Part shown: piece after piece, positions 7,100-38,300 of the stretch
Position numbering within the stretch: the stretch's first letter is position 1
How the letters are laid out: each line of letters opens with the position of its first letter
NCBI GenBank assembly: GCA_964016885.1
Contig: OZ024740.1
Location: 413,106,001 to 413,170,000 of the forward strand
Direction: 5' to 3'
Source of the DNA: Eledone cirrhosa
Taxonomy: Eukaryota
DNA length: 64,000 nt
Notes under the pieces: generated by a model
Seen by the model: only the letters and a program-made list of their open reading frames with translations
What the model was told of the DNA's origin: nothing
The model's database searches: none
Made by a program: the position numbers and the translations under genes

Positions 7100-8320
7100 G
7101 TAGTATTTCTCGTGAAAACTAAATATACCTATTGATATGTAAATACCCCACGGAGACCTCGTTCTTTAAGTTGAAGTATGTGTTTCATGACTTCAATACT
7201 TTGAGTACCGATTTCTCACTGATGCAAAGAGAACAAATCTTTGCTCCGTTAATATATATTTATTTGCCAGAATCATCCTGTAAAGGTCAGGGCCTAATGA
7301 ACGAAGTATGTGAGTAGAATCATTCAGTAAATCGTTCATAATACCAACATATATGTGTTTGGTTGGTGGTATCAAGTGCAAATTCAGTCTCATATACTAT
7401 AGACCTAATGCTACAGTTCCGTTGCAAACGGCAATCTTTCTTTAACTTGCAAGAACATCCTGGATGTTTTGGGGGGTTTGTTAGCAGCTATTGGCCTCAC
7501 GGAGTGGTGGCAAGAAAGGTTTCCCTTCAAGGAGTGTCTACTAAATATTTTGCTATACCTATGTTGTAGGGAAAACTATGTATCTGCCAGGTCTAAGTAC
7601 TAATTACAGTCACCACTGAGAATATTAATTATATTATACAGAATCTACGTATTATCACAGGCGCCGTTTGATAACGCCAGTCTCCACAATTGTAATGGTT
7701 GATGCGGTCCGTGTTTGATTTACGAAATATAATAAAGCGGGTCGGGGGTTGTTTTAACAGTAAATGTGTTTGCAGGTCAGTGTTTGGTTAATGAGTAGGG
7801 AAATCAAAGAATGTTTTTCCCACATTAATATTTGCATTTAGACATTAGCAGGCTTTGAACCAGCTTATTTTTGTAATCATAGTCTTAAGCCTGTTGTGTG
7901 AGAGAGTTATTACATACTCTTGTTTTTAAACTACAATCTAAGGGAGACATGTTGCAATACGCCGCTGCCTTCTCGAATGTCTTGTTAGTGGATGATGTTA
8001 GCGATCCTACGACTAATACTAGGGACTAAATTTTACAAAGAACTATTCACTATTAATATGTTGAAATTTTTGATTTTCCTTAGGTTTATGTCAGGGTTTA
8101 TAAGAACTAATTTTATAGCCTAGAGTGCTGCAATAATCTATTTAATCGTTACGAGACTTTTCCAGGACATGGCCATTCCAATTAAGTGTTAAAGAAATGC
8201 CATCGTCTAGGTTTATACTTATAGTGTGGTTGGGAAATTTAATCTTATCTGTATGTAGAATATAGAAGCCAACAGTGTCGTACTCATCAGAGCTAACATA
8301 TAACAACATATATATATATA
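7100..8320 (-). pseudogene. Highly degraded PLE RT + GIY-YIG (Naiad-like motifs)
   Basis: Fragments in the correct order across frames: 'VGFYILH..NLDDGI', 'YKP*HKP', 'LVPSISRRIA', 'FEKAAAYCN', 'GCSCK..C..NC.IRSIVY' and 'IYVG'. Many stops and frameshifts. The clade call is tentative. Confidence 0.7.
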
Positions 8321-8546: not shown

Positions 8547-9494
8547 GACAGTAAGAGGAAAATATAAATAGGGGGAACGAGCGAGACAGTAAACAAACAT
8601 GCTACTCCCTCTCCTACTTCCTCCCGTTTGACCTGTGCGAGATTCTTTCCTCACTCACATTTCGACCAGGTCGGATGGTCTTTATTCTCTCTCGTCTACG
8701 ATTTCACAGAACTTATGTTCATCGATTTCAGGGACTTGACTCCTTCTTCCTCACTTTTCGTTGCATTACCATCTTTGTTTGTTTACTGTCTCGCTCGTTC
8801 CCCCTATTTACGTGTCCCAACGACTTTCTTTAGCCGTTGCTCGCACCAACCAGAGGTATATGGTATTTAAAGCGATGAAATACCAAGGAAGGCTGGAAGA
8901 TCACTGATGAAGGACTAAATTGATTCATATGTAACCCATTTGCAACCAGGCAGCACGCCATGTTTTCATATTTATTATATATATTTTCCTCCGCTGTCAT
9001 CCGTCTGTTTCTTTCTTACTGATTCCCCATTTCTCTGTATCTCTCACTTCCTTTTACCCCCTCTACCAGTCACTCTCTCTGTTAGCCTCTTCCTCACACT
9101 TTCACTCACTCACTCTCTGCTACTCCATCTCTTGCTTCCTCCCGTTTGACCTGTGCGAGATTCTTTCCTCACTCACACTTCGACCAGGTCGGATGGTCTT
9201 TATTCTCTCCCGTCTACGAATTCACAGAACTTATGTTCATCGATTTCAGGGACTTGACTCCTTCTTCCTCACTTTTCGTTGCATTACCATCTTTGTTTGT
9301 TTACTGTCTCGCTCGTTCCCCCTATTTACGTGTCCCAACGACTTTCTCTAGCCGTTGCTCGCACCAACCAGAGGTATATGGTCTTTAAAGCGATGAAATA
9401 CCAATGAAGGCTGGAAGATCACTGATGAAGGACTAAATTGATTCATATGTAACCCATTTGCAACCTCGCAGCACGCCATGTTTTCATATTTTTC

Positions 9495-9497
<3 letters not shown>
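8547..9497 (+). mobile_element. Non-coding 518-bp-unit element, ~1.7 head-to-tail copies with 5' inverted fragments (locus A)
   Basis: 8600-8972 repeats at 9118-9490 (offset 518). 8565-8599 is the reverse complement of ~8776-8810. Ends in (TA)n. Homologous to 27323-28357. Confidence 0.85.
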
Positions 9498-9655
<158 letters not shown>

Positions 9656-9955: not shown

Positions 9956-10016
<61 letters not shown>

Positions 10017-10130
10017 GTTAGAATATGTGTAATAAGGCCAAGACAATGCAGATATGGACATAGAAAAAAGAATGCAATAGTGAGAGATATTGATGAGAAT
10101 TCGTCTTTCACCTTGAATTTATTTAAATGT

Positions 10131-10165
10131 CCTTAATTTTCGAGATAATATCTCTTCTTCGGAGG
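10131..10165 (-). ncRNA. Minimal type I hammerhead ribozyme (PLE-1 3' pLTR)
   Basis: cct-CCGAAGA-a-gagat(att)atctc-GAAA-a-TTA-agg. CCGA variant of the CUGA core; palindromic aatt stem III. Confidence 0.7.
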
Positions 10166-10547
10166 GAAGTAAAAGTCTCAGACCAGCGTCTAAATTTCCA
10201 ATGAAGCCATGCTGACCGGAAATAGTATAGAGTTCTAACTTTAATATCAAAGAATTAAAATTAGGTGGGTAAAGAGTAGTCTCCCTTTAAGAGGGGTTTG
10301 TTTATGTTTTTGTTGTGTTTTTTTAAATTTTATATGCGCGCCTGTATATGTGTGTGGGAGAAAGCATGAAGGTGTAGGTATGTGGGTGTGTGTGTGTGAG
10401 TGTGGGAAGATAGGTCTAATCGTAAAAGTGGGGGGTAGGTGTTATCTGGTGTTAGAACTGGTTTTGTGTGTGTATGTGTGAGAGAGAATAAGTGGAGGTG
10501 TGCGCGTGCGTGTGTGTGGGGTGTGTAAAGTGGGGCTAGAGGCCCTA

Positions 10548-11901
10548 TCAGGTTATAAATTGGGTGTTGAGCTCTAGTCTATTATTGATTGGTTGATGTG
10601 TTCTATCTATAATGAGTGCTTCCTTGATTCTAAGATTGCCGAGGTTTCTTTCCTTAGTTTCTATCCTAACTGTTATGTTTTTATCAGTGTTTTTGCATTT
10701 AACTAGGTGTTTCTTAAATGAGGAAGCGTTAGTATTGAGGTGTTCTTTTATTCTTATGTGGAGTGGTCTGGTGGTACTACCTACGTAGAAGTTGTTGCAT
10801 TTGTCACACTCTAGTCTGTAAACTACGTAAGCCTGGTGGCATAGGTCTGTGTCGTTGATGGGGCAGTTGGCTAGTCTGCAGCAGTTGTCATGTCTGGTGG
10901 AGTGTCTCTTAGCTAGCCGTCCACGCAAAGAAGGACCCGAATGGGCCAGTTGAATATCCAGACATTCTCGTCTGATGGCTCTGCGGATGGCTGTTGTTGT
11001 TTCTTCACTGAAGTGTGGGAGCTTCAGGAAGCAAGTGTTAGTGCCTCGGGTGTGGTGTCCTCTGTTCTTTCTGGCACGGTTTGTGGTGGATGTCGTGTAT
11101 CCGTTCAGTTTGAGTACTTCCAGGAAATGTGTGGTGTGTGTGTCTCGGTCTCTGGCGTCGGTGCATTTGTTCTTGATACGTGCCAGTTCGTTCTTTATGT
11201 ATCCGAACTTGGCACCGAGTGGGAGGGCCGATCTGAAATGTACGAACAGGTCCCTGCTGGCGGATTTTTTATAGAAGCAGGTGTGGATGTTGCCTTCCTC
11301 TGTTACCCTGAGTTGGAAGTCCAGCAGGGATAGGGATCCGCGGTCATCGGGGTGTTCTATGCTGAACTTTATACTGGCGTCCATGCTGGAGAATGTTGTG
11401 TATATTTTCTCTGCCTCCTCACGGGATGATGTAAGGATGAGTATGTCATCTACATATCGGGTGAAGAAAGCATGGGAATGGCAGGTGTTGAGGGCTCGGC
11501 ATTCTAGCTGGTTCATGTAAGTGATGGCCAGCAGGCCAGAGAGGCTGGATCCCATGGGTAATCCTGTTGTCTGTCTGTATGTGTGGTGGTGGAAGGTGAA
11601 GTACGTGTTGTCTACTGTGAAGGACAAAAGTTGGTGTATGTCCGTCGGGTGGAGGCCGTAGCAGTGGATGTTCTCTGCGACCACGCAGTCCGTCAATAAA
11701 TCGACAGCTGGGTGAGCGGCGATTGTAGTGTAGAGGGAGACAACGTCGAGGCTAAAAGCGTATTTATTAAGTTTAAGTTGTTCTGGCTGGAGTTGGTGTA
11801 ATCTACGTATAACTTCGTCGGAGCTACTGACATGTCCGGGGAAGGTGGAGAGTAGAGGCTTGAGGACCTGGGAGAGAAGCCAGGAAATTTTGTATATTGC
11901 A
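10548..11901 (-). CDS. PLE reverse transcriptase + GIY-YIG endonuclease (5'-truncated, uninterrupted)
   Basis: Motifs SLDVVSLYT, GLPMGSSLS, RYVDDI, LLDF, a Cys-rich linker, and VVYRLECDKCNNFYVGST..R..EH. The predicted start lies in the inverted segment and is artefactual. Confidence 0.93.
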
Positions 11902-12100
11902 CTTTCTCCCACACACATATACAGGCACGCATATAAAATTTAAAAAAACACAACAAAAACATAAACAAACCTCTCTTAAAGGGAGACTACTCTTTACCCA
12001 CCTAATTTTAATTCTTTGATATTAAAGTTAGAACTCTATACTATTTCCGGTCAGCATGGCTTCATTGGAAATTTAGACGCTGGTCTGAGACTTTTACTTC

Positions 12101-12135
12101 CCTCCGAAGAAGAGATATTATCTCGAAAATTAAGG
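12101..12135 (+). ncRNA. Minimal hammerhead (inverted pLTR copy of PLE-1)
   Basis: Identical motif in the opposite orientation. Confidence 0.7.
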
Positions 12136-12294
12136 ACATTTAAATAAATTCAAGGTGAAAGACGAATTCTCATCAATATCTCTCACTATTGCATTCTTTT
12201 TTCTATGTCCATATCTGCATTGTCTTGGCCTTATTACACATATTCTAACGTTTATACCTCATTACACAATGCTTCAAGTGAACTATAACCTCCT

Positions 12295-21182: not shown

Positions 21183-21809
21183 ATATATTTATTGATAATA
21201 ACAACAATTCAAAATTTCAGGTCCGTTTGGGAACAAAATTGACCAATGAAAATACAAAAGGTTTAATGCAGTTCGGTGTGTGTATATACATGTAACTACC
21301 CTTACACATATTTTACAAAAATGTATGCTCAACTTGTATACGCATACCAAAAGGATGGATGCAAATACAAAATGTCAAGGTTAATGTCTCTGTAAGTTTA
21401 TAATGCACAGATAAGATGCGTATAGACACATAAATATGAAATAAGTGTATACACATAATCTCATACTCACACATATCCGTACAATCACACACACACGCGC
21501 GTATATGCATAAACATACACATAACTACGAACATACAAACACACACACACCCCCACTCACATATATATATGTGGATATAAAATCCTAAGCACATGGATAT
21601 TAATTCACTCACATAAACACTGGCACACACATTTAGATCAAGATACAGAAATTAGGTGGGAGGGGGGGAGAGGTCAGTATTCAACGGTTTGGGCAGACTG
21701 CTTAATATAGATGTATCTATAAACTAAGAAAATAAAAAATTATAAATAATAAATAAACATTAAAAAGGAAAGAAAAGAAAAAGAAAAAAGAAAAAAGAAA
21801 TATATCAAG

Positions 21810-21867
<58 letters not shown>

Positions 21868-21868
21868 C

Positions 21869-21899
<31 letters not shown>

Positions 21900-22009
21900 C
21901 AAACACATACATACATATACACACATCCACACTTAGAACATACATACACACACAAATATAAACATATACATATACACACATACATACATATACACACATA
22001 CATATAAAT

Positions 22010-22078
<69 letters not shown>

Positions 22079-22355
22079 TACACATATAATCACACATACT
22101 ATATAGACACACATATATATACACACATACACGCACATATACATACACTTACATACTTATATACATACAGATATACACATACATACCTATATATACACAC
22201 AAATACATACAGACATACATACATACATACAGACAAATACTTACGCATCCATATATCGGTATATACATACAAACACCACTACACTCTCACACAACTCAGA
22301 CATACAAAGAAAAAGGTATATACCTATACACATATACATATACAAATAGAGAAAC

Positions 22356-22424
<69 letters not shown>

Positions 22425-22618
22425 CACATATACACACATACACATACATACACATACATACATGTACACACACATAGATATATATACATACACACATACA
22501 CACATACATATATAGTCATACACACACATACACCTACACGAACATACACATACACATATATAAAGATATATATACACACACACACACACATACACACACA
22601 CACATATATATAAAATAA

Positions 22619-22665
<47 letters not shown>

Positions 22666-23234
22666 CATATACATACACACATACATAGACATATATGTAC
22701 ATACATACACATACATACATACATACACACACATACATACATATATATATACACACATAGACATATACATACATACACACACAACATACATACACACATA
22801 TATACTCATACATAGAATTAGATATATATTCATACATACATACGCACTTACATATACTCATATATACAAATACATACGCATCCATATATGCGTATATACA
22901 TAGAAACACCACTACACCCTCACCCAACTCAGACATACAAAGAATAAGGCATATACATATACATATATACACGCATTAATAGAGATATATATACACATAT
23001 ATATATATATATATATATACACATACACTTATATATATATACCCACACACACATACAACCATAAATACACATACAAACACCCACATATACATATATATAC
23101 ACACATATATATATACACACACATAAAAAACAGACATGCACATATATATTTTTTTACACATATATATACACATATATATACATATACTCACCCTCACATA
23201 TACACACATACACATAAGTTATATTATAATAATA

Positions 23235-23281
<47 letters not shown>

Positions 23282-23528
23282 CGAATATAGACATATATAC
23301 ACACATAGATATATATATATATATACACATACATATACACACACACATACACACGCTCACATATATATGTGTGTGCACACACACATATATACACATACAC
23401 ACATATACACATAAACACATATATGTGTATACATGCACACACACACATATATCCACATAGATACGAAGATAGACATATAAATAGAGAGACATACATATAT
23501 ATACACACACATATATACATACATACAT

Positions 23529-23589
<61 letters not shown>

Positions 23590-24658
23590 CACACATACAC
23601 ATACACATATATATACACATGCATATATACACATATATATATACATACCCACATATATATACACACACAATCTTACATTCTTATTTGCATGCGCATATAT
23701 GTATTTTTATATTCAGATATAAATACCCAAACATATATACACCTACCTACATATATATTCATACATACACGCTTACAAACACAGATGATAATAGTATGGG
23801 GGAAAGGGGGGGGTTGGAGAAGGGGATTATAGTAAATATATGTTTCAAGAAACATATATGTATGTATATGTATATGTATATGTATATGTGTATGTATATG
23901 TATATGTATATGTATTAATTTTGATTTCTATTTGCATATAATTATATTCTGCTATTGATAAAATACAATATCTGTTTTATTTATTATATACCTAATTAAC
24001 ATATACTATAGAAATAAATATATAATTTTTAATTTAGTTAACCTATAATTTATATTCTACTACCGATGTAATACTTTATTTGTTTTTTTCCCTATTACTA
24101 AATTCATTTCCTAATATTGATACCATAACGTTATTAACTTTAATTTAGTTATACTATAATTAATACTCTACTACTATTTAACTTCAAAATTCTGCTTCAA
24201 ATATTATAAACCTAACTAATTTACACCTTAGAAATCAATATGTTAACTATCTTTAGTTTAGTTAACATATAATTAATGGTATACTTATTTATTTTGAAAT
24301 GCATAAATTTTGCCTTATTTCTTATTTATTGTATTTCCAAACACTGAAACTATGTAAAAACATACATTGGATCCAGATACGGATAATATTCTATGTTTCT
24401 TGAAACATATATTTACTATAATCCCCTTCTCCAACCCCCCCCTTTCCCCCATACTATTATCATCTGTGTTTGTAAGCGTGTATGTATGAATATATATGTA
24501 GGTAGGTGTATATATGTTTGGGTATTTATATCTGAATATAAAAATACATATATGCGCATGCAAATAAGAATGTAAGATTGTGTGTGTATATATATGTGGG
24601 TATGTATATATATATGTGTATATATGCATGTGTATATATATGTGTATGTGTATGTGTG

Positions 24659-24713
<55 letters not shown>

Positions 24714-24960
24714 ATGTATGTATGTATATATGTGTGTGTATATATATGTATGTCTCTCTATTTATATGTCTATCTTCGTATCTATGTGGATATATGTGTG
24801 TGTGTGCATGTATACACATATATGTGTTTATGTGTATATGTGTGTATGTGTATATATGTGTGTGTGCACACACATATATATGTGAGCGTGTGTATGTGTG
24901 TGTGTATATGTATGTGTATATATATATATATATCTATGTGTGTATATATGTCTATATTCG

Positions 24961-25019
<59 letters not shown>

Positions 25020-25590
25020 TATTATTATAATATAACTTATGTGTATGTGTGTATATGTGAGCGTGAGTATATGTATATATATGTGTATATATATGTGTAA
25101 AAAAATATATATGTGCATGTCTGTTTTTTATGTGTGTGTATATATATATATGTGTGTATATATATGTATATGTGGGTGTTTGTATGTGTATTTATGGTTG
25201 TATGTGTGTGTGGGTATATATATATAAGTGTATGTGTATATATATATATATATATATATGTGTATATATATCTCTATTAATGCGTGTATATATGTATATG
25301 TATATGCCTTATTCTTTGTATGTCTGAGTTGGGTGAGGGTGTAGTGGTGTTTCTATGTATATACGCATATATGGATGCGTATGTATTTGTATATATGAGT
25401 ATATGTAAGTGCGTATGTATGTATGAATATATATCTAATTCTATGTATGAGTATATATGTGTGTATGTATGTTGTGTGTGTATGTATGTATATGTCTATG
25501 TGTGTATATATATATGTATGTATGTGTGTGTATGTATGTATGTATGTGTATGTATGTACATATATGTCTATGTATGTGTGTATGTATATG

Positions 25591-25639
<49 letters not shown>

Positions 25640-25836
25640 TTATTTTATATATATGTGTGTGTGTGTATGTGTGTGTGTGTGTGTATATATATCTTTATAT
25701 ATGTGTATGTGTATGTTCGTGTAGGTGTATGTGTGTGTATGACTATATATGTATGTGTGTATGTGTGTATGTATATATATATCTATGTGTGTGTACATGT
25801 ATGTATGTGTATGTATGTGTATGTGTGTATATGTGT

Positions 25837-25898
<62 letters not shown>

Positions 25899-26175
25899 GT
25901 TTCTCTATTTGTATATGTATATGTGTATAGGTATATACCTTTTTCTTTGTATGTCTGAGTTGTGTGAGAGTGTAGTGGTGTTTGTATGTATATACCGATA
26001 TATGGATGCGTAAGTATTTGTCTGTATGTATGTATGTATGTCTGTATGTATTTGTGTGTATATATAGGTATGTATGTGTATATCTGTATGTATATAAGTA
26101 TGTAAGTGTATGTATATGTGCGTGTATGTGTGTATATATATGTGTGTCTATATAGTATGTGTGATTATATGTGTA

Positions 26176-26234
<59 letters not shown>

Positions 26235-26342
26235 ATTTATATGTATGTGTGTATATGTATGTATGTGTGTATATGTATATGTTTATATATGTGTGTGTAT
26301 GTATGTTCTAAGTGTGGATGTGTGTATATGTATGTATGTGTT

Positions 26343-26373
<31 letters not shown>

Positions 26374-26376
26374 ATG

Positions 26377-26450
<74 letters not shown>

Positions 26451-27077
26451 CTTGATATATTTCTTTTTTCTTTTTTCTTTTTCTTTTCTTTCCTTTTTAA
26501 TGTTTATTTATTATTTATTATTTTTTATTTTCTTAGTTTATAGATACATCTATATTAAGCAGTCTGCCCAAACCGTTGAATACTGACCTCTCCCCCCCTC
26601 CCACCTAATTTCTGTATCTTGATCTAAATGTGTGTGCCAGTGTTTATGTGAGTGAATTAATATCCATGTGCTTAGGATTTTATATCCACATATATATATG
26701 TGAGTGGGGGTGTGTGTGTGTTTGTATGTTCGTAGTTATGTGTATGTTTATGCATATACGCGCGTGTGTGTGTGATTGTACGGATATGTGTGAGTATGAG
26801 ATTATGTGTATACACTTATTTCATATTTATTTGTCTATACGCATCTTATCTGTGCATTATAAACTTACAGAGACATTAACCTTGAAATTTTGTATTTGCA
26901 TCCATCCTTTTGGTATGCGTATACAAGTTGAGCATACATTTTTGTAAAATATGTGTAAGGGTAGTTACATGTATATACACACACCGAACTGCATTAAACC
27001 TTTTGTATTTTCATTGGTCAATTTTGTTCCCAAACGGACCTGAAATTTTGAATTGTTGTTATTATCAATAAATATAT

Positions 27078-27285: not shown

Positions 27286-27322
<37 letters not shown>

Positions 27323-27327
<5 letters not shown>

Positions 27328-28357
27328 AAAAAATGGGGAGAAGAATACTGCAGGTTGCACATGGATACCATGTAATAAAATAAGTCCCTCATCAGTGATT
27401 TGCCGACGATCATAGATATTTCATTGCATTAAAAATCATATACCTCACGTCGGTGCAATAATAATTAAATTAAGTTATTAGGACAATTAAAACGTGTAAA
27501 GCGAGTGAGACAAGATAACAACAAAGAGGAGAGCTAACCGTAGAAGGAAGGGAACAAGCTTCATAGTTATTCTGTTAGCATAAGCTAGGTGAATATATGA
27601 GCGCTTAGAAAAAAGACCTTTCGGGAACGAATCCAAATGTGAGAAAGAGAGAAAATGTTTTCGTCGCGAACGGGGTGAAGTGAGAAGAGGAGAAACAGTG
27701 AGTGAGTGAGTGGAAGTGTGAGAAAGAGTTAACTGACATGACAGAGGGGGCGAAAGAAAGTAGGAGAAACAGAGAGAACGAGGGAGCAGTAAGAGAGAGA
27801 GAGAGAGAAAAAAACAGAATCGCAGTTTAGGTAAATATATGTGAAAAAATGGGGAGAAGAATACTGCAGGTTGCACATGGATAACATGTAATAAAATAAG
27901 TCCCTCATCAGTGATTTGCCGACGATCATAGATATTTCATTGCATTAAAAATCATATACCTCACGTCGGTGCAATAATAATTAAATTAAGTTATTAGGAC
28001 AATTAAAACGCGTAAAGCGAGTGAGACAAGATAACAACAAAGAGGAGAGCTAACCGTAGAAGGAAGGGAACAAGCTTCATAGTTATTCTGTTAGCATAAG
28101 CTAGGTGAATATATGAGCGCTTAGAAAACAGACCTTTCGGGAACGAATCCAAATGTGAGAAAGAGAGAAAAGGTTTTCGTCGCGAACGGGGTGAAGTGAG
28201 AAGAGGAGAAACAGTGAGTGAGTGAGTGGAAGTGTGAGGAAGAGTTAACTGACATGACAGAGGGGGCGAAAGAAAGTAGGAGAAACAGAGAGAACGAGGG
28301 AGCAGTAAGAGAGAGAGAGAGAAAAAAACAGAATCGCAGTTTAGGTAAATATATGTG
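27323..28357 (-). mobile_element. Non-coding 516-bp-unit element, 2 head-to-tail copies (locus B)
   Basis: Offset 516 (27325 vs 27841) with near-identical units. The reverse complement aligns along its length with the locus A unit. The 3' end abuts (TA)n. Confidence 0.88.
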
Positions 28358-28404
28358 ATTATTCATGTATATATATATATGTTAATCAATTTCTAGTTAT
28401 TATA

Positions 28405-30090: not shown

Positions 30091-30177
30091 AGTGAAAAAT
30101 TGAACGGGAACAAAACAGAAGGCAGTACGAACAAAGGTTTATTAGTTTCACGCTCTTGAGAGTGGGGTGGTGGTCGG

Positions 30178-30210
30178 GTCGACGTTTCGGGCATAATCCC
30201 TTCTTCAGGC
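30178..30210 (-). ncRNA. Minimal hammerhead ribozyme (PLE-2 3' pLTR)
   Basis: CTGAAGA-a-ggg(attatg)ccc-GAAA-c-GTC with palindromic acgt. Stem I is weak. Confidence 0.75.
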
Positions 30211-31404
30211 GAAAAGTGTGTGGGAAGAGAGTTCCAAGCGTGTGTTGGGGAGTGGGGGAGAGACATTTAGAAAAAAGGGGGTGAGAGGAAACGGTACAAA
30301 TGAAAATAAATATAAAAGCATAAAAGAATAAAAATAAACATGAAGTAAAACAAGTAGTGGAAGGGTGTGGGGCGTGTAGGGGTGGTGGCGGGTGGTGTGG
30401 GTGAGAGGAAGGCGGGGTGTCCGAGCGGGGAGAGCTGAATGTGGTGTGTGTGTGTAGGTGTACGTGTGTGTGTGCGTGTGTGGATGGGGAGGCGTCAGAG
30501 GGGTGGGGGAGGGGAGGAGAGGATTCCGGAGGCTGAGTGTGTAAATATGTGGTGGTACGCACGTGTGTGTGGTGTTTATACGTATTGTGGATGTAGGTGG
30601 CGCGTGGGAAAAAAAATTTTTTTAGTGTATGTCCGTGGGTAAGTTCCTAAGGTAATTCCGTAGAGGATGTGGTGGGATGCCGGGTAATTTCCTTGTGATG
30701 GAGTTGAATCGTGGGAGCGATGTCCAATGTGTGTAATCCGTGGTTGGGTTTGTCGGAAGAGAGATGTGGGGTGCAAGCGCAACGGGAAATGATTAGAGGG
30801 TCAAGGCAGGAGGAAGGTTGTGTGTCTGTGTGTGCGGAGAGGTGGTCAGAGATTCAAGGCATAGCAGCAGTCGGAGATAATGGCAGGTGGTGAAAGTCGA
30901 TGTGTCAGTGTGTGCGGAGGTGCGGTGGACAGGGGTGAGTATGGATAGGTGTGAAAGGTGTGGTGAGAAGGGGGTGTATTAGTAGAGATGTGTGTGTGTG
31001 TGGTGAAGGGGTGTTAGTGGGTGTTAGTATACTGGTGGTGGGGAAAGGGTTGAATAGGGGTGTTAGTGGGGGTCAGTGGTGGTAGGGTGTATAGAGTGGG
31101 TGGTGTAAGTGGGTGTGTGGGTTCGCGTGCGTGGGGTCGGGGGAGGGGGGGGGGGGCTTGGTGTTAGTGGTATTAGTTGTTGGGTGGTGGGAGTGGATGT
31201 ATGGGTGTGGGGTTAGTGGTGGTAGTAGGGTGTGGTTAGTGTGAGTGCGTGTATATATGTACCGCTGGGTGTGTGCGTGATAAGGGGAAGGAAGGAAGAA
31301 GAAAGGAGGGATGTTAGTATTGTTAGTTGGGGAAGGGTGGTCGGGTGTGTGGTGGGGTTGTTAGTATTGTGTATGTATGTGGGGGGGGGCATGGCGGTCG
31401 AAGG

Positions 31405-34103
31405 CTAAAGGAATAGGGGCGGGAAGTTCAGGCCGGGTGGAGTGTGGGTCTGTAGGGTGAAGATGGTGCGTTGTTCGACCCTGAGGAGGGTGGTGGGTGT
31501 TCCGTGGCCTTGGAGTAGGACACAGACTGTGAGGTGGTGCGCGGAATGTCTAGGGGCTCCAAAGTGGCGGGTGATGGGGGAACTACCGCCGAGACGAATA
31601 TCCCGGAGGTGTGCGGTAAACTGTTTCGCCAGGCGACGTCCAGTCTGTCCGACGTAGGTTGCGCTGCACTCCTTGCAGCGAAGTCCATAGACTAGGTTGG
31701 AGGAAGTGCAGCGGAAAGCGTGCCGGACAGAGCGAGAGTGGCCGTTGGGACCCTGGAAGATGGTGGTGTTGGTGATGTGGGGACAGGTGTTGCAACGAGG
31801 CGTGGAACAGGGAAGGGAATCGGGGGGGGAGCTGCGGACGATGAGGGTGCAGAGATTGCGTGCGCGTTTGGAGGAGGGGAGTGGTGGGGCTGGGAAGATG
31901 TGGGAGGTGGAGGAATCCACTGGAGGCGTCGGAAGAGGCGGAGGATGGTGCGGTGGAGGGGTAGGGTGGAGGGTGATAGGTGATGGGGACTGGGAGACGG
32001 TGGGTGGGTGTGGGGTGAGGGTGGTGGAGCGGGGGACAGCACGGGCGCGGGTGAGGGCGGTGTGGACGAGAGAGGGGGTAACCTCTGCGGATGAAATGGC
32101 TGACTAAGGAAAGGGCCTGGGACTCAAAGTCAGCATCTCGGCTACAGAGGCGGCGGATCCTGAGGAGTTGGGAGTACGGAATAGAGTGTTTAGTGTGTGT
32201 AGGGTGGGAAGAGGTGAAGTCGAGGTAGGAGTGGGAGTCGGTGGGTTCGAAGAAGGCGGAGGTGTCAAGGGAGTGGTGGGAGGTGTCGAAGGCGACGGAG
32301 ATGTCTAAGAAGTGGACGTGAGTGGTGGAGATACAGGTGGTGAAGTGGAGGGAGGGGTGGAAGGAGCAGAAGAAGGAGAGAAAGGAGTCGAGCTGTTCTC
32401 GGGTGAGGGTCGTGGCTCCGATACAGTCGTCGATGTAACGACCGTACAGTTCGGAGCGTGGGTCCGGAGTACTGGGCAAAAATTTGGGCCTCAACATGGC
32501 CAACAAAAAGGTTGGCACAGATTGGGCCCATTCTTGTGCCAATGACTACCCCCGTGACCTGTTGGTAAAACTCACCCGAGAAAGAGAAACAGTTTAGGGT
32601 GAGGACAAGCTCGGCGAGGCGAAGGAGGGTGGGGGTAAAGGGGATGGGGGAGGAGCCAAGGTCGAGGTAGTGCTTGAGGGCACGCAGGCCGTCGACGTGG
32701 GGGATGGCTGTATAGAGCGACTTGATATCTAGGGTGAAGAGAAAGGGCTGTGGGCCGGGTGGGAAGGTGAAGGAGTCGAATAGGCGAAAGGCGTGGTTGG
32801 TGTCGGAGATGTGGGAGGGGAGGGTGGTAACCATGGGGGCGAGGATGGAGTCAAGAAAGGCGGAGATGTGTTCGGTGGGGCAGTTGCAAGCGGAGACGAT
32901 GGGGCGGCCGGAGTTGTCAGGTTTGGGGAGTTTGGGGAGAAGTAGATAGTGGGGGTGTGAGGGGGGGACGATGAGGTGGGAAGCGCTGGGGGAGAGGAGG
33001 GAGGAGGAGACAAGATGTTGGATGGTGGAAGAAACTTGTTGTTGGTAGAGGGGTGTGCGATCGGAGGGTAGAGGGCGGTCGAAGAGGGGGCTACGGAGCT
33101 GCCTGAGGGCTTCGGCCGTGTAGAGGTCCGCGCGCCACACCACCACGGAGCCTCCCCTGATCGCCGGTTTGATGACGATGTCATCTCGGCAACGGGGGGA
33201 GCGGAGAGCGAGGAGTTCGCCCCGTGAGATGTTATTCCATTGGAACCGGGGGCGGAAGTCGAAGCGATTAACTGCGCTACGGCTGGCATCGACGAACGCG
33301 TCCAGGGTGCTAAATTGCCCTGGAGCCGGCGTCCAAGACGATGGTCATCGGCGCAGGGCGAGAAATTGGTTTGGGGCGTTCGGAGCCGGTGGTGTTTGAC
33401 CGAAATGTGCCTGTAGCTTCGTGCGTCGCACGAATCGCTCGACTTCCGTTCGTGTGCGGAAGTCATCGCTGTGTGGCGTGTGGGGTATGAAGCGAAGGCC
33501 TCTACTGAGTAGTGAGCGCTCAGGTGCGGAGAGGGGGAGGTCAGGGTGTATGGTGACAACAAGTGGTAGAGTTTGGGTGTGTGAGGGAGATTGGGTAGGA
33601 GGTGAGGGAGGGGTGGAGAGTGGCGGGTGGTGGTGGATGGAGGTGGTCGGGAGGAGTGAGTGTAGCTTACTGGCGTTGGTGGAGGTGAGGAAGGAGAAGA
33701 GGTCGTGGTTGAGGTTTTGGATGAAGAGGAGGATGGCGTGGGCGAGGAGGGGTGGCAGGCGGAGTTAAGGCGGAGGAGGGTGGCGGTCAGTTGGTAGTCA
33801 AGTTTGCGGATGGTGGAGCGGGAGGCCTGGAGGGAGTTGCGCATTAGGAGGCGCGAGGATCGGGTGATGATACGTTGGGTGGAGAGGGATGCGGAGTGGG
33901 GGGATTGTAGACGGAAGCCGAGGGGGATAAGGTGGGGATGTAGGCAGCGGCTGAGGAAATGGATGTGGCTGGAAGGCCGGGTTTTGGCGAAGAGATGGTA
34001 GGAGAGTTGAGGGGCTGAAGTGAGATAGCAGGGTGGGAGGAGGTGGTGAGGAAAGTTTGAGAAGGGTGTTGAGTTGGTGGAGAAAGGATCTCAGGCCGGG
34101 CAT
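31405..34103 (-). pseudogene. Frameshifted PLE polyprotein (RT + GIY-YIG)
   Basis: ATG at 34103 (MPGLRSFL). Motifs LPKLPK..GRPIVS, TLDIKSLYT, GVVIGTRMGP, RYIDDC, FLDI, CSTPRCNTC, NLVYGLRCKEC..YVGQTGR and PPGLN, split over several frames. Confidence 0.92.
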
Positions 34104-34605
34104 GGTGGGCGTGGAGTGAAAGCAGGGGGAGGAATGAGAAGGAAGGTGTGTGAAGCGGGGGGGGGGGGGGGGGTAACGAAGGCGTGAGTGCGAATGATGG
34201 GCAGAGACGGGGAAGGGAAGAAAATCAAAGAGAAATAACGTAAGGAGAGTATACACAGGAAAATCATAGACAAAAAATCATAATCTTTAAAAAACACAGG
34301 CAATCATTGACAAAAATACATAGACAGAAATAAAAAAAGTACAGTAAATAAATCAATAAAAAAGTAATGCAAAGAAAAGCAAAAAGTAAAAAACAAGTTG
34401 TGGGAAGGTGTGGGGAAAGTTCAGCGAGTGGTCATGGCGGATTAGATCGGGGTTGAGCCGCTAGTCAAGGTAGTATTCCAAGGAGGTATGGAAGCCGTGG
34501 GAGGGTGTATTGTATAGTGAAAAATTGAACGGGAACAAAACAGAGAGGCAGTGCGAACAAAGGTTTATTAGTTTCACGCTCTTGAGAGTGGGGTGGTGGT
34601 GGCGG

Positions 34606-34638
34606 ACGAAGTTTCGGGCATAAGCCCTTCTTCAGGCG
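34606..34638 (-). ncRNA. Minimal hammerhead (PLE-2 5' pLTR, mutated triplet)
   Basis: CTGAAGA-a-gggc(ttat)gccc-GAAA-c-TTC. Confidence 0.65.
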
Positions 34639-34883
34639 AAAAGTGTGTCGGAAGAGAGTTCCAAGGGTATGAAGGGGAGTGGGGGAGAGACATTTAGAAA
34701 AAAGGGGGTGAGAGGAAACGGTACAAATGAAAATAAATATAAAAGCATAATAAAAATAAAAATAAACATGTAGTAAAACAAGTGGGGAAGGGTGTGGGGC
34801 GTGTAGGGGTGGTGGCGGAGGGAGTGGGGAGAGGGAGGCGGGGTGTCCGAGCGGGAAGGGCTGAATGTAGTGTGTGTAGGTGT

Positions 34884-34946
<63 letters not shown>

Positions 34947-35354
34947 AATGTGAGTGTTGGAGGAAGAACGGGGGTTGCATGCTCAGGAAAAGGTGTGTGT
35001 TGGTGGGGTGTATGTCGGTGTGTGTGTGCGTGTGTGGATGGGAAGGAGTCAGACGGGTGGGGGAGGGGAGGAGAGGTTCCGGAGGCTGAGTGTGTAGATA
35101 TGTGGTGGTACGCACGTGTGTGTGGTGTTTATACGTATTGTGGATGTAGGTGGCGTGTGGGAAAAAAAATATATTAGTGTATGTCCGTGGGTAAGTTACT
35201 AAGGTAATTCCGTAGAGGATGTGGTGGGATGCCGGGTAATTTCCTTGTGATGGAGTTGATTCGTGGGAGCGATGTCCAATGTGTGTAATCCGTGGTTTGT
35301 TTGGTCCTAATAAACAGTCATATAACATACAGCACGCACAACAGCTATACGGAA

Positions 35355-38300
35355 CACACTAAGTAACAGACAACCTCATTACAGTACACACTAAGTAACA
35401 GACAACCTCATTACAGTATACACTAAGTAACAGACAACCTCATTACAATACACACTAAGTAACAGACAACCTCATTACATTATACACTAAGTAACAGAAA
35501 ACCTCATTACAATACACACTAAGGAACAGACAACCTCATTACAGTACACACTACGTAACAGACAACCTCATTACAATACACACTAAGTAACAGACAACCT
35601 CATTACAGTACACACTAAGTAACAGACAATCTCATTACAGTACACACTAAGTAACAGACAACCTCATTACAGTATACACTAAGTAACAGACAACCTCATT
35701 ACAGTATACACTAAGTAACAGACAACCTCATTACAGTATACACTAAGTAACAGACAACCTCATTACAGTACACACTAAGTAACAGACAACCTCATTACAG
35801 TACACACTAAGTAACAGACAACCTCATTACAGTACACACTAAGTAACAGACAACCTCATTACAGTACACACAAAGTAACAGACAACCTCATTACAGTATA
35901 CACTAAGTAACAGACAACCTCATTACAGTACAAACTAAGTAACAGACAACCTTATTACAGTACACACTAAGTAACAGACAACCACATTACAGTACACACT
36001 ATGTAACAGACAACCTCATTACAGTATACACTAAGTAACAGACAACCTTATTACAGTACACACTAAGTAAAAGACAACCTCATTACAGTACACACTATGT
36101 AATAGACAACCTCATTACAGTATACACTAAGTAACAGACAACCTCATTACAATACAAACTAAGTAACAGACAAACTCATTACAGTACACACTAAGTAACA
36201 GACAACCTCATTACAGTATACACTAAGTAACAGACAACCTCGTTACAGTATACACTAAGTAACAGACAAGCTCATTACAGTATACACTAAGTAACAAACA
36301 ACCTCATTACTATACACACTAAGTAACAGACAACCTCATTACAGTACACACTATGTAACAGACAACCTCATTACAATACACACTAAGTAACAGACAACCT
36401 CATTACAATATACACTAAGTAACAGACAACCTCATTACAATACACACTAAGTAACAGAAAACCTCATTACAGTACACACTATGTAACAGACAACCTCATT
36501 ACAATACACACTAAGTAACAGACAACCTCATTACAATACACACTAAGTAACAGACAACCTCATTACAGTACACTCTAAGTAACAGACAACCTCATTACAG
36601 TATACACTAAGTAACAGACAACATCATTACAGTATACACTAAGTAACAGACAACCTCATTACAGTATACACTAAGTAACAGACAACCTCACTACAGTATA
36701 CACTAAGTAACAGACAACCTCATTACAGTATACACTAAGTAACAGACAACCTCATTACAGTACACACTAAGTAACAGACAACCTCATTACAGTATACACT
36801 AAGTAACAGACAACCTCATTACAGTATACACTAAGTAACAGACAACCTCACTACAGTATACACTAAGTAACAGACAACCTCATTACAGTATATACTAAGT
36901 AACAGACAACCTCATTACAGTACACACTAAATAACATACAACCTCATTACAGTATACACTAAGTAACAGACAACCTCATTACAGTATACACTAAGTAACA
37001 GACAACCTCATTACAGTACACACTAAGTAACAGACAAACTCATTACAGTATACACTAAGTAACAGACAACCTCACTACAGTACACACTAAGTAACAGACA
37101 ACCTCATTACAGTATACACTAAGTAACAGACAACCTCATTACAGTATACACTAAGTAACAGAAAATCTCACTACAGTACACACTAAGTAACAGACAACCT
37201 CATTACAGTATACACTAAGTAACAGAAAATCTCACTACAGTACACACTAAGTAACAGACAACCTCATTACAGTACACACTATGTAACAGACAACCTCATT
37301 ACGATACACACTAAGTAACAGACAACCTCATTACAATACACACTAAGTAACAGACAACCTCATTACAGTACACTCTAAGTAACAGACAACCTCATTACAG
37401 TATACACTAAGTAACAGACAACATCATTACAGTATACACTACGTAACAGACAACCTCATTACAGTACACACTAAGTAACAGACAACCTCATTACAGTACA
37501 CACTAAGTAAAAGACAACCTCATTACAGTACACACTAAGTAACAGACAACCTCATTACAATACACACTAAGTAACAGACAACCTCATTACAGTATACATT
37601 AAGTAACAGACAACCTCATTACAGTATACACTAAGTAACAGACATCCTCATTACAGTACACACTAAGTAACAGACAACCTCATTACAGTACACACTAAGT
37701 AACAGACAACCTCATTACAGTATACACTAAGTAACAGACAACCTCATTACAGTACACACTAAGTAACAGACAACCTCATTACAGTACACACTAAGTAACA
37801 GACAACCTCATTACAGTATACACTAAGTAACAGACAACCTCATTACAGTATACACTAAATAACAGTCAACCTCATTACAATACACACTAAGTAACAGTCA
37901 ACCTCATTACAGTATACACTAAGTAACAGTCAACCTCATTACAGTATACACTAACTAACATACAACCTCATTACAGTACACTCTAAGTAACAGACAACCT
38001 CATTACAATACACACTAAGTAACAGACAACCTCATTACAGTACACACTAACTAACAGACAACCTCATTACAGTACACTCTACGTAACAGACAACCTCATT
38101 ACAATACACACTAAGTAAAAGACAACCTCATTACAGTAAACACTAAGTAACAGACAACCTCATTACAGTACACACTAAGTAACAGACACCCTCATTACAG
38201 TATACACTACGTAACAGACAACCTCATTACAGTATACACTAAGTAACAGACACCCTCATTACAGTATACACTAAGTAATAGACAACCTCATTACAGTACA

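Follow-up and report, generated by a model that had tools for sequence, protein, structure and literature searches.

Two loci in a 64,000-nt stretch of the Eledone cirrhosa genome (contig OZ024740.1, forward strand, positions 413,106,001 to 413,170,000; hereafter the window) carry head-to-tail copies of a non-coding repeat of about 517 bp. A first-pass annotation took them for dimers of a retrozyme-like family, probably mobilised by PLE machinery. What kind of element is this, how are its copies made, and does its CUGAUGA motif belong to a ribozyme? Our answer, to which we give a probability of roughly 0.7, is that the repeat is a high-copy non-coding family, likely a non-autonomous PLE of the Naiad type, whose 3′ part contains a predicted hammerhead in SGC order (site, GAAA, CUGAUGA) that would cut after unit position ~400. 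The rearranged hammerhead and the link to Naiad PLEs are the main point that the first reading had missed.

Anatomy and abundance of the repeat

The units and their surroundings are placed in the window as follows.

8555-8599, minus strand: inverted pieces 5′ of locus A; 8565-8599 matches unit 318-352 in reverse complement (35 nt, 100%), and 8555-8570 likewise matches the unit start (16 nt, 94%)
8600-8976, plus strand: upstream unit of locus A, 377 bp, 5′-truncated (unit 142-518), 96.4% identical to the full unit
8977-9494, plus strand: full unit of locus A, 518 bp, 67% pyrimidine, subfamily A (from unit alignment and composition)
9452-9494, plus strand: optional 3′ tail, 43 nt
9495-9655, no strand: (TA)n run at the 3′ end of locus A, the likely target site
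27839-28358, minus strand: upstream full unit of locus B, its 5′ end including ~5 nt of a third unit
27323-27838, minus strand: downstream full unit of locus B, 516 bp, subfamily B
27292-27322, no strand: (TA)n run at the 3′ end of locus B

Much of the first-pass description of these loci was borne out. The A and B units align along their length as diverged members of one family (345 of 491 aligned columns identical, 70%), with a score of 265.5 against a mean of -62.6 and a maximum of -19.5 in 200 shuffles. Units of the same locus are near-identical (96.4% over 388 bp in A, 98.3% over 529 bp in B), the unit ends at the same position beside (TA)n at both loci, and a short TA run lies at the unit junction. 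The GC content is 0.44 and 0.39. The CUGAUGA motif is retained at both loci, and there is no credible ORF: the stop-free frames of 100-150 aa over the units are of low complexity, and A and B have no frame in common. The proposed dimers held for locus B (28358-27323, minus strand), whereas at locus A the full unit is preceded by a truncated one, and 5′ of both lie inverted unit pieces that have the form of a typical PLE 5′ inversion. Each locus has one variant common to its two units and absent from the other sampled main copies.

Three other features of the window are recorded here. Upstream of locus A, at 8285-8291 (minus strand), lies a lone CUGAUGA for which no GAAA partner is evident; it may be what is left of a PLE hammerhead. 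A 22-kb satellite with a 32-bp unit (688 copies, 93% matches) occupies 35356-57382, and mirrored reading frames at 21313-26947 suggest a large inverted duplication of TA/CA-rich sequence.

In the 3.0-Gb genome, searches with the A and B units returned 2830 and 2144 candidates, of which 40 each were scored, full copies being 94-99% identical. A 35-nt pattern common to A and B had 7,827 exact matches against none for its control, a count of motifs and not of insertions; a pattern of a second spacing gave 633 matches against 1 and exposed further subfamilies, and two more diverged groups yielded 1813 and 3213 candidates. Copies are dispersed over many contigs, with units of ~430 to 630 bp across the family. 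Subfamily B is young, its main copies being 0.8% off the family majority. The 630-bp units (L062, L075, L083, L018) arose by internal duplication between short direct repeats at unit ~153 and ~300, which are likely a hot spot of template switching.

In most of the top copies a 5′-truncated partial unit precedes a full one. Of these top copies, 28 of 30 in A and 25 of 28 in B are followed by a TA run (duplicates L032 and L057 left out); four of the five exceptions lie inside arrays, and the remaining one is a shorter copy, also ending in TA. The 5′ junction lies directly after a TA run at 12/28, 15/25 and 13/28 loci. The first-pass annotation had called for a tabulation of monomers and multimers, and we ran it on loci chosen by their 3′ end alone (30 fetched, one duplicate dropped). 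Of these 29 loci, 18 are shorter than one unit and 11 hold one full unit plus more, four of them with at least two near-full units; no exact monomer was present. Dimers are thus not the rule, most copies being truncated or partial-plus-full tandems. There are also seamless arrays, of 9.4 and 4.7 units, and in nearly all full copies the unit start is joined directly to the end of another unit. Some copies, and most inverted pieces, stop 43 nt before the usual end, at unit 475. At five loci (L019, L020, L027, L040, L106) different subfamilies are inserted side by side in one TA run, and one unit is an A/B chimera.

Partial tandems, 5′ inversions and an optional tail are among the features listed for insertions of Naiads and other PLEs in section 6 of PMC8557442. 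The fixed 3′ end at (TA)n, the ragged 5′ ends, the partial tandems and the inversions agree with the PLE-type insertion proposed at the outset, and it is very likely that the family is a non-autonomous PLE. A tblastn search with the PLE proteins of the window over 139 loci found no RT/EN ORF in the unit or attached to it, the only matches being to separate neighbouring PLEs. Rare variants are shared by units of the same locus in 9/86 and 7/37 cases, against 44/2185 and 3/755 across loci. This supports the view that the units of one locus were copied from one source; the sharing would be expected if one template was copied repeatedly, but equally if a unit was duplicated locally at a later time.

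A predicted hammerhead in rearranged order

The GAAA of the unit lies 23 nt upstream of CUGAUGA. Since no GAAA follows CUGAUGA, a type I hammerhead is absent; what stands of the retrozyme-like label is the non-coding, tandem-forming unit with a hammerhead-like RNA, and not the classical type I ribozyme. A scan of all six block orders gave one solution per unit, on the sense strand only, in the SGC order. In the descriptor, stems I and III total 13 and 12 bp in the two units, values reached by 0 and 8 of 2000 shuffles. Core positions are given in the hammerhead numbering, and the cut site follows the NUH rule.

9332-9433, plus strand: predicted rearranged hammerhead of the locus A full unit (from descriptor, alignment and RNAalifold; the structure is predicted)
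its helices, plus strand: P0 9332-9335/9430-9433; hairpin P1 9336-9357; stem II 9359-9363/9389-9393; P4 9364-9369/9409-9414; stem III 9373-9377/9398-9402; stem I 9379-9385/9415-9421
its core, plus strand: H17 9378 (predicted cut 9378/9379); GAAA 9395-9398; CUGAUGA 9422-9428
8814-8915, plus strand: predicted SGC hammerhead of the truncated locus A unit (coordinates of the second unit minus 518), predicted cut 8860/8861
27900-28000, minus strand: predicted SGC hammerhead of the locus B upstream unit, CUGAUGA 27911-27905, predicted cut 27955/27954
27384-27484, minus strand: predicted SGC hammerhead of the locus B downstream unit (coordinates of the upstream copy minus 516), predicted cut 27439/27438

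A point change in the truncated locus A unit leaves stem I with 4 contiguous pairs. The usual stem II is absent from the unit: the strand after CUGAUGA and the strand before GAAA form 1 bp only, so that the unit lacks one of the features that define the described hammerheads, type SGC included. In the predicted structure, stem II forms between the strand before GAAA and one that lies upstream of the site, and P0 between the strand after CUGAUGA and one further upstream, the hairpin P1 being placed between P0 and stem II. A further predicted helix, P4, extends stem III.

In an alignment of 14 subfamily sequences, 92.4% of 476 cells are paired, against 83.7% after shuffling and 27-46% in slid controls. 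The covariation score is 0.348 against 0.166 for shuffled alignments, and none of 500 shuffles reaches it; the 14 sequences are related and the structure was drawn from them, and this shuffle count is not a probability. Two-sided changes occur in 14 of 34 pairs (P4 5/6, P1 4/7, stem I 3/7, stem II 1/5, P0 1/4, stem III 0/5). Stem III is nearly invariant, with 98.6% of its cells paired, and the figures for stem II and P0 are 85.7% and 87.5%, the latter with two rows of the P0 alignment one base out of register. Without a given structure, RNAalifold recovered the four nested helices P0, P1, P4 and stem III.

The core letters do not vary; at the cut site A or C is found and never G, and N7 is U, A or C, with G in addition in an older family. 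This combination of an invariant core, a free N7 and a cut-site base that is never G would be the pattern of a catalytic RNA. The A15.1-U16.1 pair (columns 60-81) is kept in 14/14 sequences, whereas beside G12 subfamily A has a C-U mismatch and others have no pair. A descriptor search that made no use of family sequences found 13 matches against none in the control, nine of them in one older family group with the same SGC layout but without P1. We consider it highly probable that the 3′ part of the unit folds as a hammerhead-type structure.

Other readings of the motif were tried and rejected. The descriptor finds the SGC order alone, and not the canonical type I, II or III; a type I hammerhead that would span two adjoining units and use a GAAA at about B position 225 is not conserved in A and was not found by the descriptor either. 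As for a C/D-box snoRNA, the Rfam matches are at chance level (E 0.93-8.6). Rfam returned no ribozyme family for the whole window at the gathering threshold or for two stretches at E up to 10, a search that is insensitive here, as it also missed the type I motif of a PLE at ~30200.

Do the 5′ ends of the copies mark the predicted cut? They stop within unit 396-489 in 6 of 29 first-pass and 17 of 38 second-pass cases (p = 0.068), with no pile-up at the predicted cut itself, where a TA microhomology confounds the few ends that do fall there. The sharpest cluster, at 439-447, lies 40 nt beyond the predicted cut, at the start of the C block; it holds 8 of 27 second-pass ends against 1 of 29 first-pass ends (p = 0.01, a post hoc value from the youngest B copies), and 0 of 11 in an unbiased second-pass set. 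Because the 5′ ends do not clearly mark the cut, and because of the confounding microhomology, we put the predicted cleavage at about even odds, measurable self-cleavage being slightly the likelier outcome.

Probable relation to Naiad elements and search for a partner

According to PMC8557442, Naiads have no canonical hammerheads, and eight families, including one from Octopus and one from a squid, are marked there as 'HHR half core'. We read by eye the 3′ ends, ~350 nt each, of 53 of the 54 published Naiad consensus sequences in the supplement of that paper. The full split-stem SGC layout is clear in five of them (two from Octopus, three from Acropora), whose sequences are quite different, and the Beroe and Euprymna ends fit it in part. 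In a coral end the junction has no unpaired bases and a G-C pair stands beside G12. Six nematode ends (three from Nippostrongylus, one each from Haemonchus, Heligmosomoides and Ascaris; File S5) show complete type-CSG hammerheads (CUGANGA, site, GAAA), with textbook cores and long stems. In the same ~350-nt part, neither motif was seen by eye in the other 40 ends. Other conserved structured 3′ motifs are present in Naiad-1_Movir and in bivalve and hemichordate Naiads of File S5. Naiads may swap ribozyme classes. The 3′ motif of the Morbakka Naiad looks twister-like.

Hammerheads with non-circularly permuted blocks are known from environmental RNA sequences without a known host element, CSG from only two sequences, according to the main text of PMC10085705. 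We see an even chance that Naiads carry such hammerheads (complete ones of type CSG in nematodes and, in the cephalopod, coral and comb jelly elements, a new topology of SGC order whose stem II has become a four-way junction), and that the repeat is a cleaving Naiad-type retrozyme with thousands of copies, in a class that searches for types I, II and III do not see. If so, animal retrotransposons would give these hammerheads a biological home and thousands of natural variants, and the puzzle of the Naiad 'half core' would be explained. The published inference that hammerheads are dispensable in Naiads would also be weakened, and surveys with type I descriptors would undercount animal retrozymes. 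Moreover, the split stem II is a test case for the assumption that nothing can interrupt the CUGANGA block.

Which element could provide the proteins? The unit's own motifs of 10-13 nt had no match in the Naiad supplement, and two short motifs of the published Octopus Naiad consensus had none in the genome at up to 2 mismatches. A back-translated Naiad RT motif gave 3 matches against 3 in the control, a count at chance, and translation of these matches revealed Naiad-like remnants. An 85-aa Naiad-like piece, which matches no Pfam family, then had 53 matches among 88 candidates (all scored), mostly broken and 36-70% identical to the query. Among 21 Naiad remnants examined, two keep a GIY-YIG remnant upstream of the RT and nine keep a common 3′ end. 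Seven of these ends, aligned with one another, have the S-G-C order, and in stems III and I 89.8% of the 88 cells are paired; their covariation is not above shuffles on most measures (59, 144, 21 and 20 of 500). At position 3 of the core the remnants have U and at position 8 A (e.g. L221:4732-4862 and related loci), and natural U3-A8 hammerhead variants exist.

In a comparison that may have missed other lineages, the unit did not match the 3′ ends of three PLE families and two Naiad remnants, the remnants scoring z below 2.1; one score of z = 4.8 in this comparison came from a low-complexity C/A/T stretch. Because their 3′ sequence does not match the unit, the Naiad remnants are relatives by layout and not the parent. 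As the remnants found are old and broken and subfamily B is young, the driver may be another PLE clade. The preference for (TA)n is common to the other PLEs of the window too and is not diagnostic of Naiads. We hold it probable that the repeat family descends from a Naiad 3′ end.

Neighbouring PLEs (PLE1 and PLE2 of the window and the L108/L116 family) were rejected as parents, being separated from the repeat by TA runs and having no 3′ end in common with it. The PLE at 10014-12255 (minus strand) has a 463-aa open frame (RT and C-terminal GIY-YIG), a 5′ inverted pLTR and TA flanks; in its pLTR lies a minimal type I hammerhead variant with CC for CU at the start of the core. At 30092-35356 (minus strand) there is a frameshifted PLE, presumably Neptune-like. 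Each of its pLTRs contains a minimal type I hammerhead of canonical form, missed by Rfam, and the end of this PLE resembles the last 8 nt of the unit. L108 and L116 belong to a third PLE family flanked by TA, which has an RT, a C-terminal GIY-YIG and inverted pLTRs. Another short TA-flanked element, in inverted pairs, recurs at many loci (L108, L116, L200).

Mechanism, alternatives and known systems

Copy anatomy, copy number, covarying helices and intact core letters are direct observations, and it is from the anatomy that we infer the following mechanism. A tandem locus would be transcribed in the pyrimidine-rich sense, and a PLE RT/GIY-YIG protein acting in trans would nick a (TA)n run for target-primed reverse transcription. 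The cDNA would start at an internal AU-rich site of the RNA, of which there are two, separated by 43 nt: the unit end or junction, and position 475; PMC11167929 describes two internal RT start sites for an anole PLE, which match the two 3′ ends of the repeat family. Having copied the unit, the RT would continue on the same template, into a terminal redundancy or a second pass, either by strand transfer across the redundancy or around a circle. A variable stop point would leave partial-plus-full tandems and arrays of up to 9.4 units, and priming on the second strand would produce the 5′ inversions. The ribozyme, probably slow or protein-assisted, would trim tandem transcripts to unit length. 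Because the unit pairs weakly with itself and second-pass 5′ ends lie at 439-447, we favour strand transfer across a terminal redundancy rather than a circle.

The circle nevertheless deserves attention. Two ribozymes could free a unit-length RNA, ligated into a ~517-nt circle on which the RT would roll to give 1.x to 9.x units; type I retrozymes work this way (PMC7229834), both window loci carry two predicted ribozymes one unit apart, and the long seamless arrays and the rare variants shared within loci would be expected. However, units folded as circles are only 41-44% paired and are 67% pyrimidine, compared with the highly self-paired circles of PMC7229834, the 5′-end cluster seen in the second pass only suggests the end of a linear RNA, and strand transfer accounts for the same arrays, so that circular RNA appears unlikely as the main template. 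The cleavage itself can also be questioned. A hammerhead descendant that no longer cuts could be a platform on which the PLE protein binds or primes, with tandems formed by strand transfer and transcripts starting near unit 442. The split stem II and the mismatch beside G12 would be understandable in such an RNA, as would 5′ ends that cluster at the start of the C block and not at the predicted cut. An anole PLE inserts in vitro without hammerhead cleavage (PMC11167929), and 8 of 9 Xenopus retrozyme dimers failed to cleave (bioRxiv 10.64898/2026.07.22.740005). The catalytic pattern of conservation speaks against the loss of cutting, as do U3 and A8 of the Naiad remnants, which preserve that core pair; we find this reading doubtful, though it has some weight.

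Two other explanations concern the nature of the family. The first-pass annotation had itself considered that the unit might be a mere pLTR, and a pseudo-LTR, the 3′ end of an autonomous PLE left by 5′ truncation, would suit the frequent 5′ truncation of PLE insertions and the likeness of layout to Naiad 3′ ends. It is very improbable, as nearly all full copies join unit start to unit end, no PLE RT is attached at the 139 loci, arrays of pure units exist, and the 3′ ends of the three PLE families and two Naiad remnants match nothing in the unit beyond the low-complexity stretch. A satellite or tRNA-derived SINE, multiplied by local duplication and with CUGAUGA present by chance, would explain that tandem arrays exist, and local duplication or conversion could also yield the shared rare variants. 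This origin is extremely unlikely, given that the copies are dispersed on many contigs, with inversions, fixed 3′ ends and ragged 5′ ones, that an intact core is surrounded by six covarying helices and that no Rfam family is found at threshold. A non-autonomous PLE with a predicted hammerhead remains our reading, and it can be set beside several known systems.

Animal non-LTR retrozymes (PMC7229834; bioRxiv 10.64898/2026.07.22.740005) are likewise non-coding tandem units of a few hundred bp that lack LTRs, with one hammerhead core each and a GC content under 45%, non-autonomous and co-occurring with PLEs, and the unit length falls in the 51-972 bp range of the bioRxiv report. However, retrozymes carry type I hammerheads, whereas the repeat has a predicted SGC-order core with a split stem II, invisible to type I descriptors; and retrozyme circles are highly self-paired (PMC7229834), whereas the unit is pyrimidine-rich and weakly paired.

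Naiad PLEs (PMC8557442) share the (TA)n target, the partial tandems, the 5′ inversions, a 30-40-nt tail and, in the 3′ UTR, the 'HHR half core'. Read by eye, the Octopus Naiad ends have the helix order, the 23-nt spacing from GAAA to CUGAUGA and the P1 loop of the unit. Naiads are 3.3-4.4 kb long, whereas the repeat units measure 0.43-0.63 kb and have no ORF, and cephalopod Naiads are described as long-dead remnants without a recognised ribozyme, whereas subfamily B is young.

The type-SGC and type-CSG hammerheads of PMC10085705 resemble the predicted structure in the S-G-C order (type SGC), the pseudoknotted stems I and III, the full set of core letters and the short linker from stem I to the strand before GAAA. 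They come from metatranscriptome and metagenome sequences, and the main text of that paper gives no PLE or animal context. Block C is assumed there to be uninterrupted, whereas here CUGAUGA leads into P0, an upstream strand completes stem II and P1 lies between. Hammerhead variants with additional helices are mentioned in passing in PMC13725137 and may be a precedent for the stem II junction; the available part of PMC10162972 holds nothing on them. In mainly open literature, with PMC10085705 represented by its main text, we found no report of the repeat family itself, nor of any SGC or CSG hammerhead in an animal genome or in PLEs, Naiads included.

Chlamys elements such as MRC1 (PMC8557442) are non-autonomous derivatives of the N-terminal-EN clade of PLEs, with pLTRs and multicopy head-to-tail insertions like those of the repeat. 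They differ in being green algal, in their (CA)n or (C)n targets and in having a recognisable autonomous partner, and no ribozyme is reported for them. Because the type I order is absent and a direct stem II does not form, we file the repeat under neither retrozyme nor type SGC. In its predicted mode of operation it would work like an animal retrozyme or a non-autonomous Chlamys element, and it is best filed as a non-autonomous PLE with a variant predicted hammerhead.
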